Source: a virus
Taxonomy: Duplodnaviria; Caudoviricetes
DNA: 64,000 nucleotides
Strand: one strand, 5' to 3'
Virus record (IMG/VR): IMGVR_UViG_3300026549_000032
Location: 1-64,000 of that record
Shown: in pieces, positions 11,182 through 15,793 of the stretch
Numbering within the stretch: position 1 is the stretch's first letter
Layout: each line of letters begins with the position of its first letter
The notes under the pieces: generated by a model
What the model saw: only the letters and a program-made list of their open reading frames with translations
Database searches by the model: none
Told to the model about the DNA's origin: nothing
Program-made: the position numbers and the translations under genes

Positions 11182-11844
11182 ATGGAACTTTTAAGAGGAG
11201 TGGTGTACAAATATACTAACATAATAAACAATAAAGTGTACATCGGCCAGACAATAGATGAAGAAAAACGAAAAGAGAAATGGCGAGAGATAAACAGTCC
11301 TTATGCGGGATCATATATTAATCGAGCCAGAGAGAAATATGGAATAGCTTCATTCTCTTATGAAGTAATTATAGAAATATTTGACGAGGATAGAGCCAGT
11401 TTAAAAAAGAGACTCAATATCCTAGAAATCAAATACATCGCTGAGTATAGAAGTAGCGAAGAAGAATTTGGATATAACTTAACAACTGGCGGCGGAGCTT
11501 CTGGCCGAAAGCAAATAGTAACAAATGAGGCTCGTAAAAATATGAGTATAGCTCAAAAAGGGATTAAAAAGCCAATGTCCGAAGAAGGTAAAAGGAATAT
11601 AAGCGAAGCGCATAAAGGAAAAAAGAGTCCATGGCGATATAAAAAAGTTTGTCAACTTGATAAAGAAACTGGAGAACTAATAAAAATCTGGGATTCCCTA
11701 ACAGAAGCTGCTGCATCTTTCGGAGATAATCGCGTGAGCAATCTAACATATGCAATAAGGGGCAAATATCGCCACAAATTTTATCGAGGATATAAATGGG
11801 TTTATTATGAAGATTTTTCTAAAAAGAATAGCGAAAAGGGATAA
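11182..11844 (+). CDS. Free-standing GIY-YIG homing endonuclease with NUMOD3 x2 and NUMOD1 DNA-binding modules
   Basis: 'GVVYKYTNIINNKVYIGQT', 'GYNLTTGG', 'EARKNMSIAQKG'/'EGKRNISEAHKG', 'KKVCQLDKETGELIKIWDSLTEAA'. Confidence 0.9.
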   Translation: MELLRGVVYKYTNIINNKVYIGQTIDEEKRKEKWREINSPYAGSYINRAREKYGIASFSYEVIIEIFDEDRASLKKRLNILEIKYIAEYRSSEEEFGYNLTTGGGASGRKQIVTNEARKNMSIAQKGIKKPMSEEGKRNISEAHKGKKSPWRYKKVCQLDKETGELIKIWDSLTEAAASFGDNRVSNLTYAIRGKYRHKFYRGYKWVYYEDFSKKNSEKG

Positions 11845-12268
11845 ATATACAATTGGGAAACTTTACATTGATGGAGAATATTTCTCAGATTGCATCGAAG
11901 ATAAAGATCGTGGTCTTACTCAGAATATGTCCCTCGAAGAGATCAAGAAGATCAAAATTCCCAATGAGACTGCTATCCCGACCGGGACTTATAAGATCAC
12001 ACTCAATGTGGTAAGTCCTAAGTTTAGTAAATATAATGCCTATAAATATATTGGCGGAAGACTTCCTCGACTACTTGATGTTCCTGGATATAGTGGTGTT
12101 CTCATGCATATTGGAAACACAGCAGAGCACTCCAGCGGCTGCCTGATAGTAGGACAAAATACGCAAGTAGGAAAAGTCTTGAATAGTACAGTCACTTTCA
12201 AGAAATTATACGCCAAACTACAAGAGGCAAATAAAAGAGGTGAAGTAATAACAATAACAATTGAATAG
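11807..12268 (+). CDS. DUF5675 family protein (L,D-transpeptidase-like His/Cys motif; putative cell-wall enzyme)
   Basis: 'YTIGKLYIDG', 'ETAIPTGTY', 'LPRLLDVPGYSGVLMHIGNTAEHSSGCLIVG'. Confidence 0.85.
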   Translation: MKIFLKRIAKRDKYTIGKLYIDGEYFSDCIEDKDRGLTQNMSLEEIKKIKIPNETAIPTGTYKITLNVVSPKFSKYNAYKYIGGRLPRLLDVPGYSGVLMHIGNTAEHSSGCLIVGQNTQVGKVLNSTVTFKKLYAKLQEANKRGEVITITIE

Positions 12269-12278
12269 AAAAATAAAA

Positions 12279-12330
12279 TCCCATGACTCAGGGGAACAAC
12301 GGCCTGAAACCATTCGTTTGGATCATGGGA
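12279..12330. other. Branched stem-loop after DUF5675 (possible minus-strand terminator)
   Basis: TCCCATGA (12279-86) / TCATGGGA (12323-30) encloses TCAGG/CCTGA and CCA/TGG stems. The A-rich tract on its left reads as a U-tract on the minus strand. Confidence 0.45.
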
Positions 12331-12395
12331 ACCGAAACAAAGAAAACGCGGACAGGAAAAGAGGAAAATCCTATTAATGAAAAGAAATAGTAGGA

Positions 12396-12430
12396 ATGGA
12401 TATGATTGAATTTTATGTCCGTTTATTTTT
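12396..12430 (+). terminator. Terminator-like hairpin
   Basis: ATGGATATGA (12396-405) / TTATGTCCGT (12413-22), 10 bp with 3 G-U pairs, followed by TTATTTTT. Confidence 0.45.
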
Positions 12431-12447
12431 GAATCGATTAAGAGAAT

Positions 12448-12694
12448 TATTTTCCATAACTAAACTTTATTTAAAGTGTCTGGATACAAAAATCCTAGTG
12501 CCTATGACCACTTGTGAAAGCCGTTATAGGTTTATGGACACAGATCATGAACCCGAATTTTCGCGTGGTCGGTCTATGACCGAGAACCCTCGACCTTCGC
12601 ATGGGGAAGCAAGCCCCAGCTTGGTCTCGTTCGCTTCGCTCTTCGGTTCTTCACTAAGTCTGATCCTAGATAAGTGATTTTGTTATGGAAAATA
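12448..12694 (+). ncRNA. Putative structured non-coding RNA (or ssDNA element) upstream of the helicase-like gene
   Basis: A perfect 13-bp closing inverted repeat TATTTTCCATAAC/GTTATGGAAAATA encloses several hairpins that need G-U pairs on the + strand, including one with a GNRA (GTGA) tetraloop. Confidence 0.5.
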
Positions 12695-12805
12695 TTTATG
12701 AACCCCGTGAACCCGGAATATACTTATTCTTAGAGATTACAGTAAAAATCTGTAATTATTGGTTCAAGGCTCGGGTGAACCCAGGCGCGAAGAAACGGGT
12801 TCACC
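12548..12805. repeat. Clustered TGAACCC motif (iteron-like) and terminal 9-bp hairpin
   Basis: TGAACCC at 12548, 12699, 12708 and 12776, inverted at 12797-12803, and a partial inverted GGTTCA at 12761. GGTGAACCC/GGGTTCACC forms a stem ending 32 nt before the helicase ATG. Confidence 0.7.
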
Positions 12806-12837
12806 ATAAAACAATTAAAAATTAAATAAAGTTTAGT

Positions 12838-14961
12838 ATGAATGAGAAATTAATTGTACCAAAAGGAATACGGTACATTAGTCAATGGCAAGACTTTAAA
12901 TTGGATGATTATCCACATATCATGAACAAACAAATACCAGGATGCGGATTTACTGAATGGTGTCTAGTTAACGGAGAAAATATTATTCTCTGTTCTCCCA
13001 GACGAATCTTACTACAGAACAAGTTTGATCAACATCAAGGGGAAGTTTTTCTAGTAATGAATAACCAAGAAGAAAAATTTTCACCAGATAAGGATCTTTC
13101 TAGGGGATTAAATATTGAAAATTCTCTCAAGAAAAAAGATTTGTCATTACCAGAAAATGTTAAAACAGAAATAAATTTAGTGGATTTGGTAGATGAAACA
13201 GAGGAAGTAGATAAAAATGTTTACCAAGAATTGAGGAATAATATTCGTGAGTATATTATTTCTCGAAAAATTAGTAAACAGCCTTGTAAAATTCTCGTTA
13301 CTTACGACTCATTTGGGTTAGTAAAAGATATACTCTATTCTTTAGGGTATTTCTTTGAGTTTAGGGTGATTATAGATGAGTTTCAGTCAATTTTCGTAGA
13401 CAGTAGATTTAAACCCTCCACAGAAATAAAATTTTTATCTTACTTGGATGGGGTACAGAAAGTTTGTTATGTAAGTGCAACTCCTATGATGAAAGAGTAT
13501 CTTTCAATGATGCCTGAGTTTAAAGATCTACCGTACTATGAACTAGATTGGGAAACAGATCAACCTGAGAGAATATCTAAACCAAATCTAAAAGTTAGAT
13601 ATACAAGATCTGTAACAGAGGCCGCTAAAAATATAATAATTCCCTATAAGGAAGGTAAATTTGACGTTAAATATGTTAAACGACAAGGTCAACCACAGGC
13701 TATTGAATCAAAAGAGGCTGTTATATATGTTAATTCAGTTAATAACATCATCAGTATAATAAAAAAATTTGATTTGAAGCCGGAAGAAGTTAATATCCTC
13801 TGTAGTAATACAATAGATAATGCAAATAAGGTAAAAAACAAGCTTGGACAAGGGTTTTCTATAGGCCGAGTTCCTCTTAGGGGAGAACAGCATAAGATGT
13901 TTACTTTTTGTACTCGTACAGTCTATCTTGGAGCAGATTTCTATTCAACAACGGCCAGGACTTTTATTATCTCTGATGCAAATATAGAGACTCTTGCAGT
14001 TGATATTTCTCTCGACTTACCACAAATTCTTGGTAGACAGAGGTTGGAGGATAATCCTTGGAAAAATTCAGCTGAGTTTTACTATAAGCCACTCGCTCTA
14101 AAGAATAGAACTGATAGAGAGGAGTTTGACAATTTAATAGCAACTAAGGATGCAACAACTCAAGGTGCTATTAAGAATTATGAGACTATTGCTGAGAACA
14201 GTCCTGATACCCTTGATGTGTTAATAGGAGGTTATGCTGATTTAATAAAAGTAAATAACTATAGAAAGGATTATCTTTCTCTAAAACCTATCCATGAAGA
14301 GTATGTAGATTCTGTTGGTAATGTTATTAAACGAACTATTTGGATCCCTACTGTTAACAATCTTGTTCGCGTATCTGAGCTCAGGGCATTTGAAATACAA
14401 CAGGTTGATTACAAAGATAGGTTTAATGTATTTAGTAATTTAGATAGTTCTCTTGGTTTAGATACTGAGAATCAAGAGGTTAGAGATTTTCTTCTCGATT
14501 ATCAAAACCTAACCAAGCTTTATGATAAACTAAAGTATCTTTGTAATCTCGATTTTCAGGGAAAGTTAACATCAATACTTTTAGCTCAGGTTTCAGAAAA
14601 GCATTTTCAAGAATATTTCACTATCCTAGGATCTGAGAGAATCCGAGCGTTAGGGTATGATGTATCTTTACTTAATAGAGAACTTGGTTTATTGACTTTT
14701 GATACAACAGAGCTTCTAGAAAAAGTATATAGTACTTTCCTTCCAGGAAATAGATATACATCTGTAGATATTAAACAAATGTTATCAATTATTTACGATG
14801 AAGTTGGTTATGGTAAAACTCCTATAGCAACTGACCTAGAAGATTGGTTTGAAATAAAACGAGTTCAAATTAATACAAAGGTATCAAGGGGAGTTTATAA
14901 GAGAGATAAAGGATTTGAAATTATTTCAAAGAAAGGGGCTCGGAATGATTTATCTTATTAG
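12838..14961 (+). CDS. SF2 (DExD/H-box) helicase-like protein with a degenerate Walker A and a C-terminal putative DNA-binding domain
   Basis: Motif I-like 'IPGCGFTE', Ia 'ILCSPRRIL', II 'IIDEFQS', III 'YVSATP', IV 'AVIYVNSV', V 'FCTRTVYLGADF', VI 'LPQILGRQR'. Confidence 0.8.
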   Translation: MNEKLIVPKGIRYISQWQDFKLDDYPHIMNKQIPGCGFTEWCLVNGENIILCSPRRILLQNKFDQHQGEVFLVMNNQEEKFSPDKDLSRGLNIENSLKKKDLSLPENVKTEINLVDLVDETEEVDKNVYQELRNNIREYIISRKISKQPCKILVTYDSFGLVKDILYSLGYFFEFRVIIDEFQSIFVDSRFKPSTEIKFLSYLDGVQKVCYVSATPMMKEYLSMMPEFKDLPYYELDWETDQPERISKPNLKVRYTRSVTEAAKNIIIPYKEGKFDVKYVKRQGQPQAIESKEAVIYVNSVNNIISIIKKFDLKPEEVNILCSNTIDNANKVKNKLGQGFSIGRVPLRGEQHKMFTFCTRTVYLGADFYSTTARTFIISDANIETLAVDISLDLPQILGRQRLEDNPWKNSAEFYYKPLALKNRTDREEFDNLIATKDATTQGAIKNYETIAENSPDTLDVLIGGYADLIKVNNYRKDYLSLKPIHEEYVDSVGNVIKRTIWIPTVNNLVRVSELRAFEIQQVDYKDRFNVFSNLDSSLGLDTENQEVRDFLLDYQNLTKLYDKLKYLCNLDFQGKLTSILLAQVSEKHFQEYFTILGSERIRALGYDVSLLNRELGLLTFDTTELLEKVYSTFLPGNRYTSVDIKQMLSIIYDEVGYGKTPIATDLEDWFEIKRVQINTKVSRGVYKRDKGFEIISKKGARNDLSY

Positions 14962-15793
14962 GTCTTCAGCTTACGACGAAACTAACGATATCTTCTCGTT
15001 TATATTAAAAATTGGATATACTAAAGATGGTGTCGCGGCTCAAAAGAGATTTGAGAACTATAATGGTCATAATCCAACCTGTAAGGTATTATTTAAAATA
15101 CCGAATGGAACTAGAAGACAGGAAGGCGCGCTTCATGAATACTTTAAGGAATTTCGTATATACAATAGAGAATGGTACGAATATAGAGAAGAGATTGTTG
15201 AGTTTTTCAAAACACATACTACAGCAGAATCTTTAGATTCCTCTTTTTCAGAATATAAGTTTAAATATGAGAGGAAGTCAGATACTTTTATTAAAGTTAA
15301 TAAGTTTAAGAATTTTCTTAAAGAGTTAGAAGATTCAGAGCTTAAATCTGCACTATCTGATTATTTAAAGATTTCACCTTATAAAAGATTGAAATTATTA
15401 TATGATCTTTTTAAGGCTGGTCTTGTTACTGAAGCACTCTTAGAAAATATTCCTGAAAATAACTTCAGAGATTATTTTAATATTCTTGGTCCAGATCGAA
15501 TAAAAGCTTGTGGATATAATATTACAGTTCTTAATCGAGAACTTGGTATTAAGTCTTTTGATAGTCAATCATTAGTAGAAGATATAAATAATTATTTCAC
15601 AGTTGGTGAGAGATATTCTCTATCCGACGTTAAGTCGAACCTACAGACTATTTATAAAAACTGTGGTTATGATAAATCTCCCCAAGCCAAAGATCTCTCT
15701 GAATGGTTTGAACTTCAGGATCTTACTTTCAATGTAAAAGTTGATGGTACTATAAAACGAACTAGAGGATATCGAATCCTCTCCAAGAAATAA
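14945..15793 (+). CDS. GIY-YIG superfamily (T5orf172/MUG113-like) nuclease fused to the same C-terminal domain as the upstream helicase
   Basis: 'MIYLI...LKIGYT.....KRFENY..HNP...LF.......EGALHEYF......REWY'. The C-terminal ~155 aa align with the helicase C-terminus. ATG 14945 is preferred over the TTG at 14915. Confidence 0.75.
   Translation: MIYLIRSSAYDETNDIFSFILKIGYTKDGVAAQKRFENYNGHNPTCKVLFKIPNGTRRQEGALHEYFKEFRIYNREWYEYREEIVEFFKTHTTAESLDSSFSEYKFKYERKSDTFIKVNKFKNFLKELEDSELKSALSDYLKISPYKRLKLLYDLFKAGLVTEALLENIPENNFRDYFNILGPDRIKACGYNITVLNRELGIKSFDSQSLVEDINNYFTVGERYSLSDVKSNLQTIYKNCGYDKSPQAKDLSEWFELQDLTFNVKVDGTIKRTRGYRILSKK

Follow-up and report, generated by a model that had tools for sequence, protein, structure and literature searches.

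A conserved leader RNA upstream of a helicase-like gene in an uncultured jumbo phage, with a plausible role in hiding the start codon

The multi-stem structure at positions 12448-12694 of the window, which is the whole 64,000-nt stretch of phage DNA analyzed here, is a real and conserved core of an untranslated leader RNA of ∼400 bases. We consider it fairly probable that this segment is the core of a cis-acting 5' leader on the + strand, which controls translation of the helicase-like gene at 12838. A sequence-only reading, in which the segment had been picked out, offered two roles for it. The evidence agrees with a leader RNA for the downstream helicase, whereas nothing points to a guide or scaffold. 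The structure is conserved, but its limits are not those proposed. Because the conserved units are the pairing of an upstream arm with the gene start, the adjoining domain 1, and a GC-rich core, the functional element reaches from ∼12445 to 12848.

Results

The source of the window is an uncultured jumbo phage with a genome of 218 kb. Its tail operon is interrupted by a helicase-nuclease cassette, in which the nuclease gene comes and goes among relatives (it is absent in L096, L106, and L109). The spacer ahead of the helicase-like gene measures 572 nt, and its 5' neighbor is a DUF5675 gene (Table 1). The helicase-like protein keeps motifs II, III, and VI, has a motif I without the lysine, and displays a generic SF2 core in its predicted fold, which does not tell an RNA substrate from a DNA substrate. 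The genome contains four paralogues, the gene has at least 4982 relatives in public data, and the protein has seven matches in the phage collection, with no T5-like phage among them. The C-terminal ∼160 aa of the nuclease are common to the helicase-like protein (41% identity to residues 538-699).

Table 1. Features of the leader and of the two downstream genes, with positions as numbered in the window
Feature	Positions	Strand	Description
5' hairpin	12279-12332	+	In the whole-spacer fold; spacer begins just past the DUF5675 stop
Leader open frame	12396-12677	+	93 codons; crosses the anti-start arm and structured domains
Anti-start arm (X-Y)	12445-12475	+	5' arm of the 13-bp stem (first part) and 5' arm of the perfect 16-bp long-range helix (second part, 12459-12474)
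Domain 1 (P1)	12476-12541	+	Closing stem 12476-81/12536-41; hairpins 12482-85/12492-95 and 12500-08/12523-31
Stem and small hairpin	12544-12582	+	12544-49/12564-69; 12570-74/12578-82
Central GC-rich hairpin	12584-12632	+	12584-87/12629-32, 12592-95/12623-26, 12599-00/12619-20, 12602-06/12614-18
Last enclosed hairpin	12651-12677	+	12651-55/12673-77, inner stem 12658-62/12667-71; in the minimum-energy fold
3' arm of the 13-bp stem	12682-12694	+	Start-region mimic; decoy AUG 12685-12687
Third domain	12699-12805	+	Stem 12699-12704/12761-12766 enclosing two small hairpins; hairpin 12774-12782/12797-12805; in the spacer fold
Helicase-like gene start region	12822-12848	+	AUG 12838-12840; pairs with 12449-12475
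Helicase-like gene	12838-14961	+	707 aa; SF2 fold (RecQ/WRN/Brr2-like)
Nuclease gene	14915-15793	+	Pfam T5orf172 (GIY-YIG-type)

Homologous leaders of 450-600 nt, ahead of the same gene and within the same tail-operon synteny, are present in at least seven lineages of uncultured rumen/gut phages (L100, L096/L110/L111, L102/L158, L113, L106, L003, and L002), among which the helicase-like protein is 52-99% identical. The segment itself matched no Rfam family at the gathering score or at E ≤ 10 and contains no tRNA as assessed by ARAGORN, in line with the earlier impression that it is no tRNA, ribozyme, or intron core. Covariance models and ARAGORN gave no match anywhere in the window for group I/II introns, self-cleaving ribozymes, GOLLD, ROOL, HEARO/omega RNA, tRNA, or tmRNA, nor did Rfam and ARAGORN for the leaders of three paralogues. 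A blastn search of the spacer against 50,697 phage records returned no match, and two exact-pattern scans of IMG/VR, using motifs from the L002/L003 core, returned chance matches only, besides the two known contigs. A multi-copy mobile element was considered and rejected, since both BLAST and the covariance model found a single copy of the structure in the 218-kb genome. A miniature inverted-repeat transposable element was rejected on the same ground, and because no flanking duplication is seen and the arm falls on a gene's start codon.

The folding energy of the 247-nt segment is −77.5 kcal/mol, compared with −56.0 ± 4.6 kcal/mol for 200 dinucleotide shuffles, none of which was as good (z −4.65). 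For the whole 572-nt spacer, the fold has a z of −5.56. The segment was also correctly described as GC-richer than its flanks (0.465 at 12500-12699 versus 0.30-0.37). The minus strand folds at −77.5 kcal/mol as well (z −4.78), and the argument that G-U pairs betray the coding strand of an RNA is thus not decidable from the window alone. In alignments of the relatives, G-U cells outnumber A-C cells by 12 to 1 (A3) and by 19 to 7 (A5), i.e. 31 to 8 in total, which points to a + strand RNA. In addition, the + strand folds better in six of the seven syntenic leaders, by up to 21 kcal/mol. Together with the compensatory changes described below, the G-U excess supports the proposal of a selected, single-stranded + strand fold.

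The covariation among homologous loci that would be expected of such an RNA is seen in domain 1, whose helices show compensatory changes. The two stems originally recognized there (12476-81/12536-41 and 12501-08/12523-30) and the GNRA tip are all part of the minimum-energy fold and are maintained by compensatory changes in relatives. The second stem, as hairpin 12500-08/12523-31, ends in a 3-bp tip capped by a GNRA tetraloop at 12514-12517. In a covariance-model alignment (A7), a type of alignment that leans to the model's own structure, 99.1% of the domain 1 cells are paired and 17 of the 21 pairs have changed on both sides, with no shuffle out of 500 as good and slid controls at 32-44%. In an independent MAFFT alignment (A3), 95% of the cells are paired and 11 of the 21 pairs have changed on both sides, and again no shuffle out of 500 did as well. 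The number of independent lineages available is small, about six. The GNRA loop persists, with variation confined to the motif, and hairpins followed by T-runs (terminators) in related phages have the same GNRA-type cap; both features speak for an RNA on the + strand. Domain 1 is lacking altogether in L002. In L096 and L111, a second compact copy of the module, consisting of arm, domain 1, and arm, follows the helicase gene.

The arm that precedes domain 1 is complementary to the start of the helicase-like gene. A perfect 16-bp helix (12459-74/12822-37), covering positions −16 to −1, is extended over the AUG, which pairs with 12455-12457, and over the first codons. The two strands are 369-397 nt apart (about 370 nt in the window), with three conserved domains between them. 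In every lineage, the arm-to-start helix closes the minimum-energy fold of the full leader; in L106 the domains are present and the arm-to-start pairing is not detectable. The AUG is paired in seven of seven lineages, and several kinds of base pair occur at positions −12 to −1. When the 510-nt upstream region was searched, each start paired best with its own leader (six of six), the cognate duplex having −19.2 kcal/mol versus −13.0 ± 2.5 kcal/mol for leaders other than its own. The best partner was the arm, always abutting the 5' side of domain 1, and no other leader segment showed a cognate preference for start regions. Opening the start region costs 11.9-12.3 kcal/mol in the model, a high value that ranks third among 38 window genes (each folded together with its 400 nt upstream). 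Because two other window genes score as high, this energy is not proof, and the case rests on covariation.

The perfect 13-bp stem 12448-12460/12682-12694, which had been taken to close the structure, is present. Neither the 13-mer nor its complement occurs anywhere else in the window, with 0.24 chance matches expected at one mismatch. Since the mimic in its 3' arm and the true AUG compete for 12455-12457, the 13-bp stem and the start lock are alternative, partly exclusive states. However, the 16-bp helix and the 13-bp stem overlap by just 2 nt and can coexist in the window, so that positions −16 to −1 would be hidden in both states. Equivalent mimics are found in five other lineages, at the same place in L096, L110, and L102 and directly after domain 1 in L003 and L113; the mimic therefore follows the core in four lineages and precedes it in two. 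What is conserved is accordingly not the 250-nt unit that the 13-bp stem closes, because the partner of the arm in L003 and L113 lies directly after domain 1.

Other members of the gene family have unrelated leaders with long start-locking helices of their own (L138, L135, L014, L027, and L018, in which the helix is perfect over 24 bp). In L018 and others, a promoter-like 10-nt motif lies between the arms. This motif is absent from the leader in the window at ≤2 mismatches, and scans for sigma-70 promoters and intrinsic terminators found nothing above chance. A start-locking helix common to the whole family was rejected, because most paralogues have long spacers in which it is lacking, including the three others in this genome. 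Related phages also contain arrays of tiny promoter-hairpin-terminator units with the same hairpin cap, so small RNAs seem to be common in the group.

Such arrays, along with the second module behind the helicase gene of L096 and L111, would suit an alternative in which the arm plus domain 1, or the 250-nt unit, is a stable small RNA, either a trans-acting antisense repressor of the helicase mRNA or an RNA partner of the helicase-nuclease pair. In having a 27-nt single-stranded seed ahead of a domain that is compact, capped, and stable, the unit does resemble antisense RNAs. The nearest known case is the c4 antisense RNA of phages P1/P7 (RF01695) and the P4 CI RNA, in which a leader contains an antisense segment and two target copies, and here too there are two target copies, one of them at the start of the regulated gene. 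In contrast to c4, both targets are 3' of the antisense strand instead of flanking it, and there is no match to RF01695 or any other Rfam family. There is no sign of processing signals, and the unit has neither a promoter-like motif ahead of it nor a T-run behind domain 1 or the 13-bp stem. Moreover, a cis fold is sufficient, as the arm is paired in cis in the full-length leader fold of every lineage, and nothing hints at a variable guide segment toward other targets, the element being single-copy in the genome. We therefore find a small RNA unlikely.

Downstream of domain 1, a stem (12544-49/12564-69) and a small hairpin (12570-74/12578-82) take the same place in the folds of the window and L096. 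The stem, first described as 12543-49/12564-70, persists in the 73% lineage, where a U-G pair is replaced by C-G. Three double changes separate the small hairpin of the window from that of L096, scored by eye as the MAFFT register is off there. These three compensatory changes speak against the previously proposed helix 12578-84/12620-26, which clashes with the small hairpin; the outer stem of the central hairpin is 12592-95/12623-26 instead. The central GC-rich hairpin has a 7-nt loop (12607-12613), is 75-100% paired in A5, and shows two double changes. Its inner 5-bp stem (12602-06/12614-18), which the sequence-only reading had identified, is kept with one double change. A hairpin with another stem sequence and the same or a similar loop is found at the central place in L106, L102, L113, L003, and L002. 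The stem 12651-55/12673-77 is plausible, with one compensatory change in L096 (by eye, alignment A5), but the alignment is poor at 12651-12677 and support for this hairpin is therefore weak. RNAalifold found no consensus in the all-lineage MAFFT alignment of the core because the helices are out of register, and we therefore argue conservation of the core from single folds and close relatives only. Three assemblies break within the GC-rich core.

The sequence of the core differs between lineage groups. Between L102 and L113 it is 95-100% identical although the helicases share just 56% aa identity, which is not explained if the core is a mere spacer in the lock. This could be explained if the leader were a sensor, whose core binds a small ligand or a protein (e.g. 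the shared C-terminal domain) and thereby fixes the 13-bp stem, so that the start is freed or locked. Such a sensor is a special case of the translational-control leader, with a defined trigger, and it strikes us as rather unlikely. As in translational riboswitches (e.g. the adenine add and TPP thiM types), a multi-helix fold conserved in shape lies in a 5' leader, and its closing helix competes with pairing of the start: the arm has two partly exclusive partners sharing 12455-12457, one of which is the start region, as would be expected of an expression platform. The GNRA loop hints at a tertiary contact, and two adjacent proteins with a common, nucleic-acid-binding-like C-terminal domain are at hand. 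Unlike in riboswitches, the position of the closing helix is not conserved, one lineage (L002) is without domain 1, no ligand is indicated, and no known aptamer was matched in Rfam. Variation of the core by lineage group would be unusual for a ligand pocket, and the coexistence of the 16-bp helix with the 13-bp stem would leave −16 to −1 hidden either way.

Further hairpins lie on both sides of this region. In the third domain, L003 and L102 have a different 9-bp hairpin at the place of 12774-12782/12797-12805. At the other end of the spacer, the hairpin 12279-12332 is kept in L002 with a compensatory change and is also present in L096, L100, L110, and L111, with more copies elsewhere in L106, L096, and L111. 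Since it lacks a T-run, we did not score it as a terminator.

The long-range helices consist almost exclusively of Watson-Crick pairs and thus do not discriminate RNA from DNA; duplex energies on the plus and minus strands are similar in most lineages. Near-perfect repeats that fold equally on both strands might act as DNA, i.e. as a replication origin or loading site, as a site recognized or cleaved by the nuclease or the shared C-terminal domain, or as the boundary of a mobile cassette, with the RNA folds being incidental. An SF2 helicase fold with an added C-terminal domain is encoded downstream, as in origin-binding helicases. The insertion of the cassette in the tail operon, its variable nuclease gene, the leader modules flanking the helicase gene in L096, and the assembly breaks in the GC-rich core could all be accommodated. 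We nevertheless deem a DNA site quite unlikely. It offers no reason why the arm is always directed at the start codon and first codons of the gene, even when arm sequences are unrelated, and G-U strongly exceeds A-C in the local helices. Loops of the GNRA and UNC types have been preserved, the cap is common to terminator hairpins, and the helices are maintained by compensatory change and not, as in a protein-binding site, by conserved sequence. An iteron/origin reading of 7-nt repeats was rejected, because most copies are simply the arms of two stems in the third domain.

The leader also contains an open frame of 93 codons, which has no match in Pfam, PHROG, or NCBIfam. Five of six syntenic lineages, and only three of the eight independent lineages tested, have an ATG frame of 74-105 codons across the arm; it is absent in L106 and short in L002. 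Leader frames exceed local shuffles in length in several lineages (p 0.002-0.06) and gene callers annotate the frame in L098-L101, as might be expected if the leader encoded a small protein (89-131 aa in some related contigs) and its structure were secondary. Against this, substitutions relative to L096 number 17, 12, and 14 by codon position, with no third-position excess, and there are single-base indels in the frame. Predicted peptides are unrelated between lineage groups beyond nucleotide identity, and the covariation tracks base pairs rather than codons. A small protein as the function of the leader is thus scarcely credible, and, judged from its sequence, the frame is probably not a protein gene in the usual sense.

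Discussion

Taken together, these findings are best explained by a leader whose arm (12445-12475) pairs with the start region, including the AUG, and would thereby block access of ribosomes. The RNA would be made by read-through from the tail operon, because every gene has the + orientation and neither a terminator nor a promoter was detected. The lock could keep a selfish helicase-nuclease cassette near silent within a strongly expressed late operon. Relief might come from ribosomes that translate the leader frame and cross the arm, as in MS2, from capture of the arm by the mimic at 12682-12694, or from a factor that binds the core. T4-style relief through an internal promoter is not supported here, since no copy of the promoter-like motif lies in the leader of the window.

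In phage T4, genes e and soc have RNA structures that hide their starts. On read-through transcripts, the ribosome-binding sites of T4 I-TevI, I-TevII, I-TevIII, and segB, and of Aeh1 mobE, are likewise masked by RNA structure (PMC2988022). In T4, such a structure is a local hairpin spanning a few tens of bases, and a late promoter within it provides relief (PMC2988022). The leader described here is alike in that a predicted RNA helix, for which there is also covariation, on a putative read-through transcript pairs the ribosome-binding region and start codon of a dispensable, probably selfish inserted gene. A GIY-YIG-type nuclease gene is part of the cassette, and the predicted effect is at translation, not transcription. 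It is unlike the T4 type in that there is no short local hairpin at the start: the strands are 369-397 nt apart (∼370 nt in the window) and enclose conserved domains and a start mimic. In addition, no internal promoter was seen in the window, and the regulated gene is the helicase-like gene, not the nuclease gene.

A long-distance interaction (Min Jou) couples translation of the replicase to that of the coat gene in phages MS2/Qbeta. There too, a long-range helix masks a start, and the leader frame across the arm could open it in a comparable manner. The upstream strand in MS2 is, however, part of a real gene, whereas the frame in the window is without protein-level constraint.

A more speculative and somewhat unlikely possibility is that the enclosed core is a sensing or protein-binding RNA that chooses between the decoy and the true start. 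It would then define a new riboswitch-like or autoregulatory class of leaders for helicase-nuclease cassettes in giant gut/rumen phages. The reader of the core may be the C-terminal domain common to both proteins, or the core may be processed to a stable small RNA.

To our knowledge, giant gut/rumen phages are almost all uncultured. In this group, we describe a conserved, covarying RNA of ∼400 nt that is in none of the RNA databases searched and whose plausible job is to hide the start codon of a helicase-like gene. It suggests how a helicase-nuclease cassette that is probably selfish could be accommodated midway in a tail operon and yet not be over-expressed, and it would extend the logic of T4 homing endonucleases to a long-range, multi-domain form. 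The GNRA-type cap common to terminators and the 10-nt promoter-like motif are aids for annotation in this phage group. If the core is indeed a sensor, the leader would represent a new class of regulatory RNA.

Helix between the leader and the start of the helicase-like gene

The key to the structured element is a perfect inverted repeat that the sequence-only reading had not listed, in which 12459-12474 is complementary to 12822-12837, the 16 bases immediately 5′ of the start codon of a helicase-like gene. Per lineage, the upstream 550 nt were searched for segments that pair with the start region (−28 to +12). In each of seven lineages the best partner lies 369-397 nt upstream, except in one of them, L002, a relative without domain 1, where the distance is 328 nt; it always adjoins domain 1 on the 5′ side, and the duplex covers the AUG. 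For one exception, L106, pairing of the start region with the upstream 550 nt was not above shuffles. The paired sequences differ among lineages, with up to four pair types at positions −12 to −1. With the full upstream regions of all leaders available for pairing, each start region found its best partner in its own leader, in six of six cases (−19.2 versus −13.0 ± 2.5 kcal/mol for other leaders), and other 40-nt leader segments showed no preference for their own leader. In every full leader, this arm-to-start helix closes the minimum-energy fold. The modelled cost of opening the start is 6-22 kcal/mol across leaders; the value for the window, 12.3, ranks only third among 38 window genes.

Start-locking helices of their own, up to 24-36 bp, occur in unrelated leaders of the helicase-like family (L018, L138, L135, L014, and L027). 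Most family members, including the three other paralogues in the genome of the window's phage, have none, and such a helix is thus not a family-wide rule.

Features of the leader and of the neighboring genes (window positions)
Feature	Position	Strand	Remarks
DUF5675 gene	11807-12268	+	Upstream of spacer
Spacer	12269-12837		569 nt; holds structured element
Leader open frame	12396-12677		93 codons; annotated as gene in some related contigs
Domain 1	12476-12541		Closing stem, small hairpin, and longer hairpin with 3-bp tip and GNRA tetraloop
Helicase-like gene	12838-14961	+	707 aa; downstream of spacer
T5orf172/GIY-YIG-type nuclease gene	14915-15793	+	Overlaps end of helicase-like gene

Locus and relatives

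The virus record is 218 kb long, with an estimated completeness of ∼60%; the window covers its first 64 kb, and all large frames are on the + strand. Just upstream of the leader, a GIY-YIG/NUMOD3 homing-endonuclease gene (11182-11844) extends into the beginning of the DUF5675 gene. Its absence from the 99%-relative L100, where different small genes stand in its place, marks it by sequence comparison as a recent insertion or replacement.

A nucleotide search of the spacer against phage records gave no match, and the best IMG/VR relatives of the helicase-like protein reach only 53% identity. Closer leaders came from a metagenome scan and from a protein search whose hits were traced to their contigs. 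The sources are all rumen or gut metagenomes, and the helicase-like proteins of these contigs are 99% (L100/L101), 73-74% (L096-099, L110, and L111), 57-61% (L102-105 and L158), 56% (L106), 53% (L113 and L002), or 52% (L003) identical to that of the window. The gene occupies the same site, before the tail chaperone and tape-measure genes, and the spacers (450-600 nt) are collinear with the window's. Few independent lineages underlie the leader comparisons.

The 707-aa protein has no match in Pfam, PHROG, NCBIfam, or PDB sequence searches. Its predicted structure (pLDDT 77.5) is an SF2 helicase core, RecQ/WRN/Brr2-like. Motifs II, III, and VI are kept in the protein and its family, but the Walker-A lysine is missing family-wide, with phenylalanine in its SF2 position (alignment A6); as an ATPase, the family may be atypical or inactive. 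The C-terminal ∼160 residues are 41% identical to the C terminus of the nuclease. There are four paralogues in the window's genome, several per genome in 200-400-kb relatives, and at least 4982 public relatives, nearly all unnamed. In many homologues (L002, L007, L008, L010, L015, L021, and others), tblastn matches are ∼1 kb longer than the gene (∼3040 versus 2010 nt), a hint of insertions, for instance introns, inteins, or nested endonuclease genes.

Local helices and their conservation

The 13-bp perfect inverted repeat claimed earlier is present, and the segment is, as stated, GC-richer than its flanks. It folds better than shuffles (z −4.65; −5.56 for the whole spacer) and matches no Rfam family or tRNA. 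Nearly all the helices listed in the sequence-only reading were recovered, except 12578-84/12620-26, which is contradicted by a small hairpin (12570-74/12578-82) with three double changes in L096.

Covariation among homologous loci, which had been proposed as a check, was found in domain 1, which keeps its pairs through double changes. In a plain MAFFT alignment (n = 6), 95% of cells are paired and 11 of 21 pairs show double-sided change; none of 500 shuffles was as good, and sliding the partners reduced pairing to ∼40%. A covariance model made from this alignment matches every lineage but L002 and L106, with one copy in the window's genome and, in L096 and L111, a second one downstream of the helicase gene. 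In the covariance-model alignment, which is biased to the model's own structure, 99.1% of cells are paired, with double changes in 17 of 21 pairs. Over 56 pairs (13-bp stem, domain 1, next stem, and central hairpin) compared among the window and the three nearest distinct relatives, 94% are paired, with four double changes versus 1.2 in shuffles.

All lineage groups have, at the same place, a central hairpin and, after it, a mini-hairpin (4 bp, three-base loop), their stem sequences differing. The surrounding GC-rich core is 95-100% identical between L102:2766-2882 and L113:1255-1357, against 56% for their helicase-like proteins and 40-70% for the flanking leader. At the sequence level, this indicates extreme constraint or else recent exchange of the core, and hints at a sequence-specific function beyond what the lock model explains. 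Three independent assemblies (L108:1, L109:1, and L112:1) start a contig inside the core at nearly the same homologous position, which may reflect a repeat common to leaders or reduced coverage where a stable hairpin forms.

Decoy start and leader frame

In the 13-bp stem, the 5′ arm belongs to the anti-start strand; the 3′ arm (12682-12694) is similar to the start region and includes an AUG at 12685-87. Such a mimic is found in every lineage, after the GC-rich core (window, L096, L110, and L102) or directly after domain 1 (L003 and L113). Since this decoy and the true AUG compete for 12455-57, the modelled leader can take alternative states. In the window, the 13-bp stem and the 16-bp helix (to −16 to −1) can form together, so neither state exposes the bases before the AUG.

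The leader frame is contradicted as an ordinary protein gene by its substitutions relative to L096 (17/12/14 by codon position, no third-position excess), by single-base indels within it, and by predicted peptides that are unrelated between lineage groups. The anti-start arm is nevertheless spanned by an ATG frame of 74-105 codons in five of the six syntenic lineages, and by such a frame in three of the eight independent lineages. The window's frame stops 5 nt before the mimic, and a second one, opening at the decoy AUG, reaches its stop 13 nt short of the true AUG. In MS2, which has a long-distance interaction that further parallels the lock, coat and replicase are coupled; by analogy, this arrangement suggests that ribosomes translating the leader frame would open the lock.

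RNA or DNA

Because the minus strand of the window's segment folds equally well, the proposed + strand G-U pairing needed relatives for testing. It held there, with G-U versus A-C helix cells at 12:1 and 19:7. Tetraloop variation stays within GNRA, and the + strand folds better in six of seven syntenic leaders. The leader's 16-nt hairpin cap also tops hairpins with trailing T-runs in related phages, where these come after a 10-nt motif; the units look like promoter-terminator pairs, hence RNA-level signals. In the window's genome (G000), the motif occurs at ten sites (e.g. 113791, 114181, and 164400), 20-90 nt ahead of the start codons of ten genes and always in gene orientation; none of the sites lies within the window, and the motif probably represents a class of phage promoter that the structural-gene region lacks. 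Promoter and terminator scans of the spacer detected none. Nearly all pairs of the long-range helices are Watson-Crick, which by itself is compatible with a DNA-level role; the G-U excess, GNRA loop, shared cap, and + strand energies jointly favor a + strand RNA.

Related modules elsewhere

Downstream of the helicase-like gene in L173 (3510-4540) lies an array of ∼8 mini units, each consisting of the 10-nt promoter-like motif, 40-60 nt, and then a hairpin that bears the conserved cap and is trailed by a T-run. No tRNA was called by ARAGORN in this array, which may consist of small RNA genes. At L096:5077-5346 (also L097, L098, and L111:3609-3764), a second compact module (arm, domain 1, arm with ATG; 45.8 bits with the covariance model) occupies the site of the window's nuclease gene, so leader modules flank the helicase gene on both sides. 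Behind the module come another copy of the 5′ hairpin and then a terminator-like hairpin (region fold z −7.5). Outside the window, the leaders of two other paralogues in G000 (163950-164110, +; 73742-73935, −) have in common, also with L162:996-1123, another GC-rich structured element, in which compensatory changes and a UUCG-type loop are seen. It has no Rfam match, and these leaders show no start-locking helix.

Mechanism and known parallels

The leader belonged to none of the catalogued RNA families tested; in form, it parallels translational riboswitches and c4-type antisense RNAs. In T4, the ribosome-binding sites of homing-endonuclease genes are hidden by RNA structures on read-through transcripts (PMC2988022). 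By analogy, this is the closest known mechanism to the leader lock, which differs by its range, enclosed conserved domains, and decoy, and by having no visible internal promoter. We consider it fairly probable that the element is a cis-regulatory RNA that would act by locking the start of the helicase-like gene.
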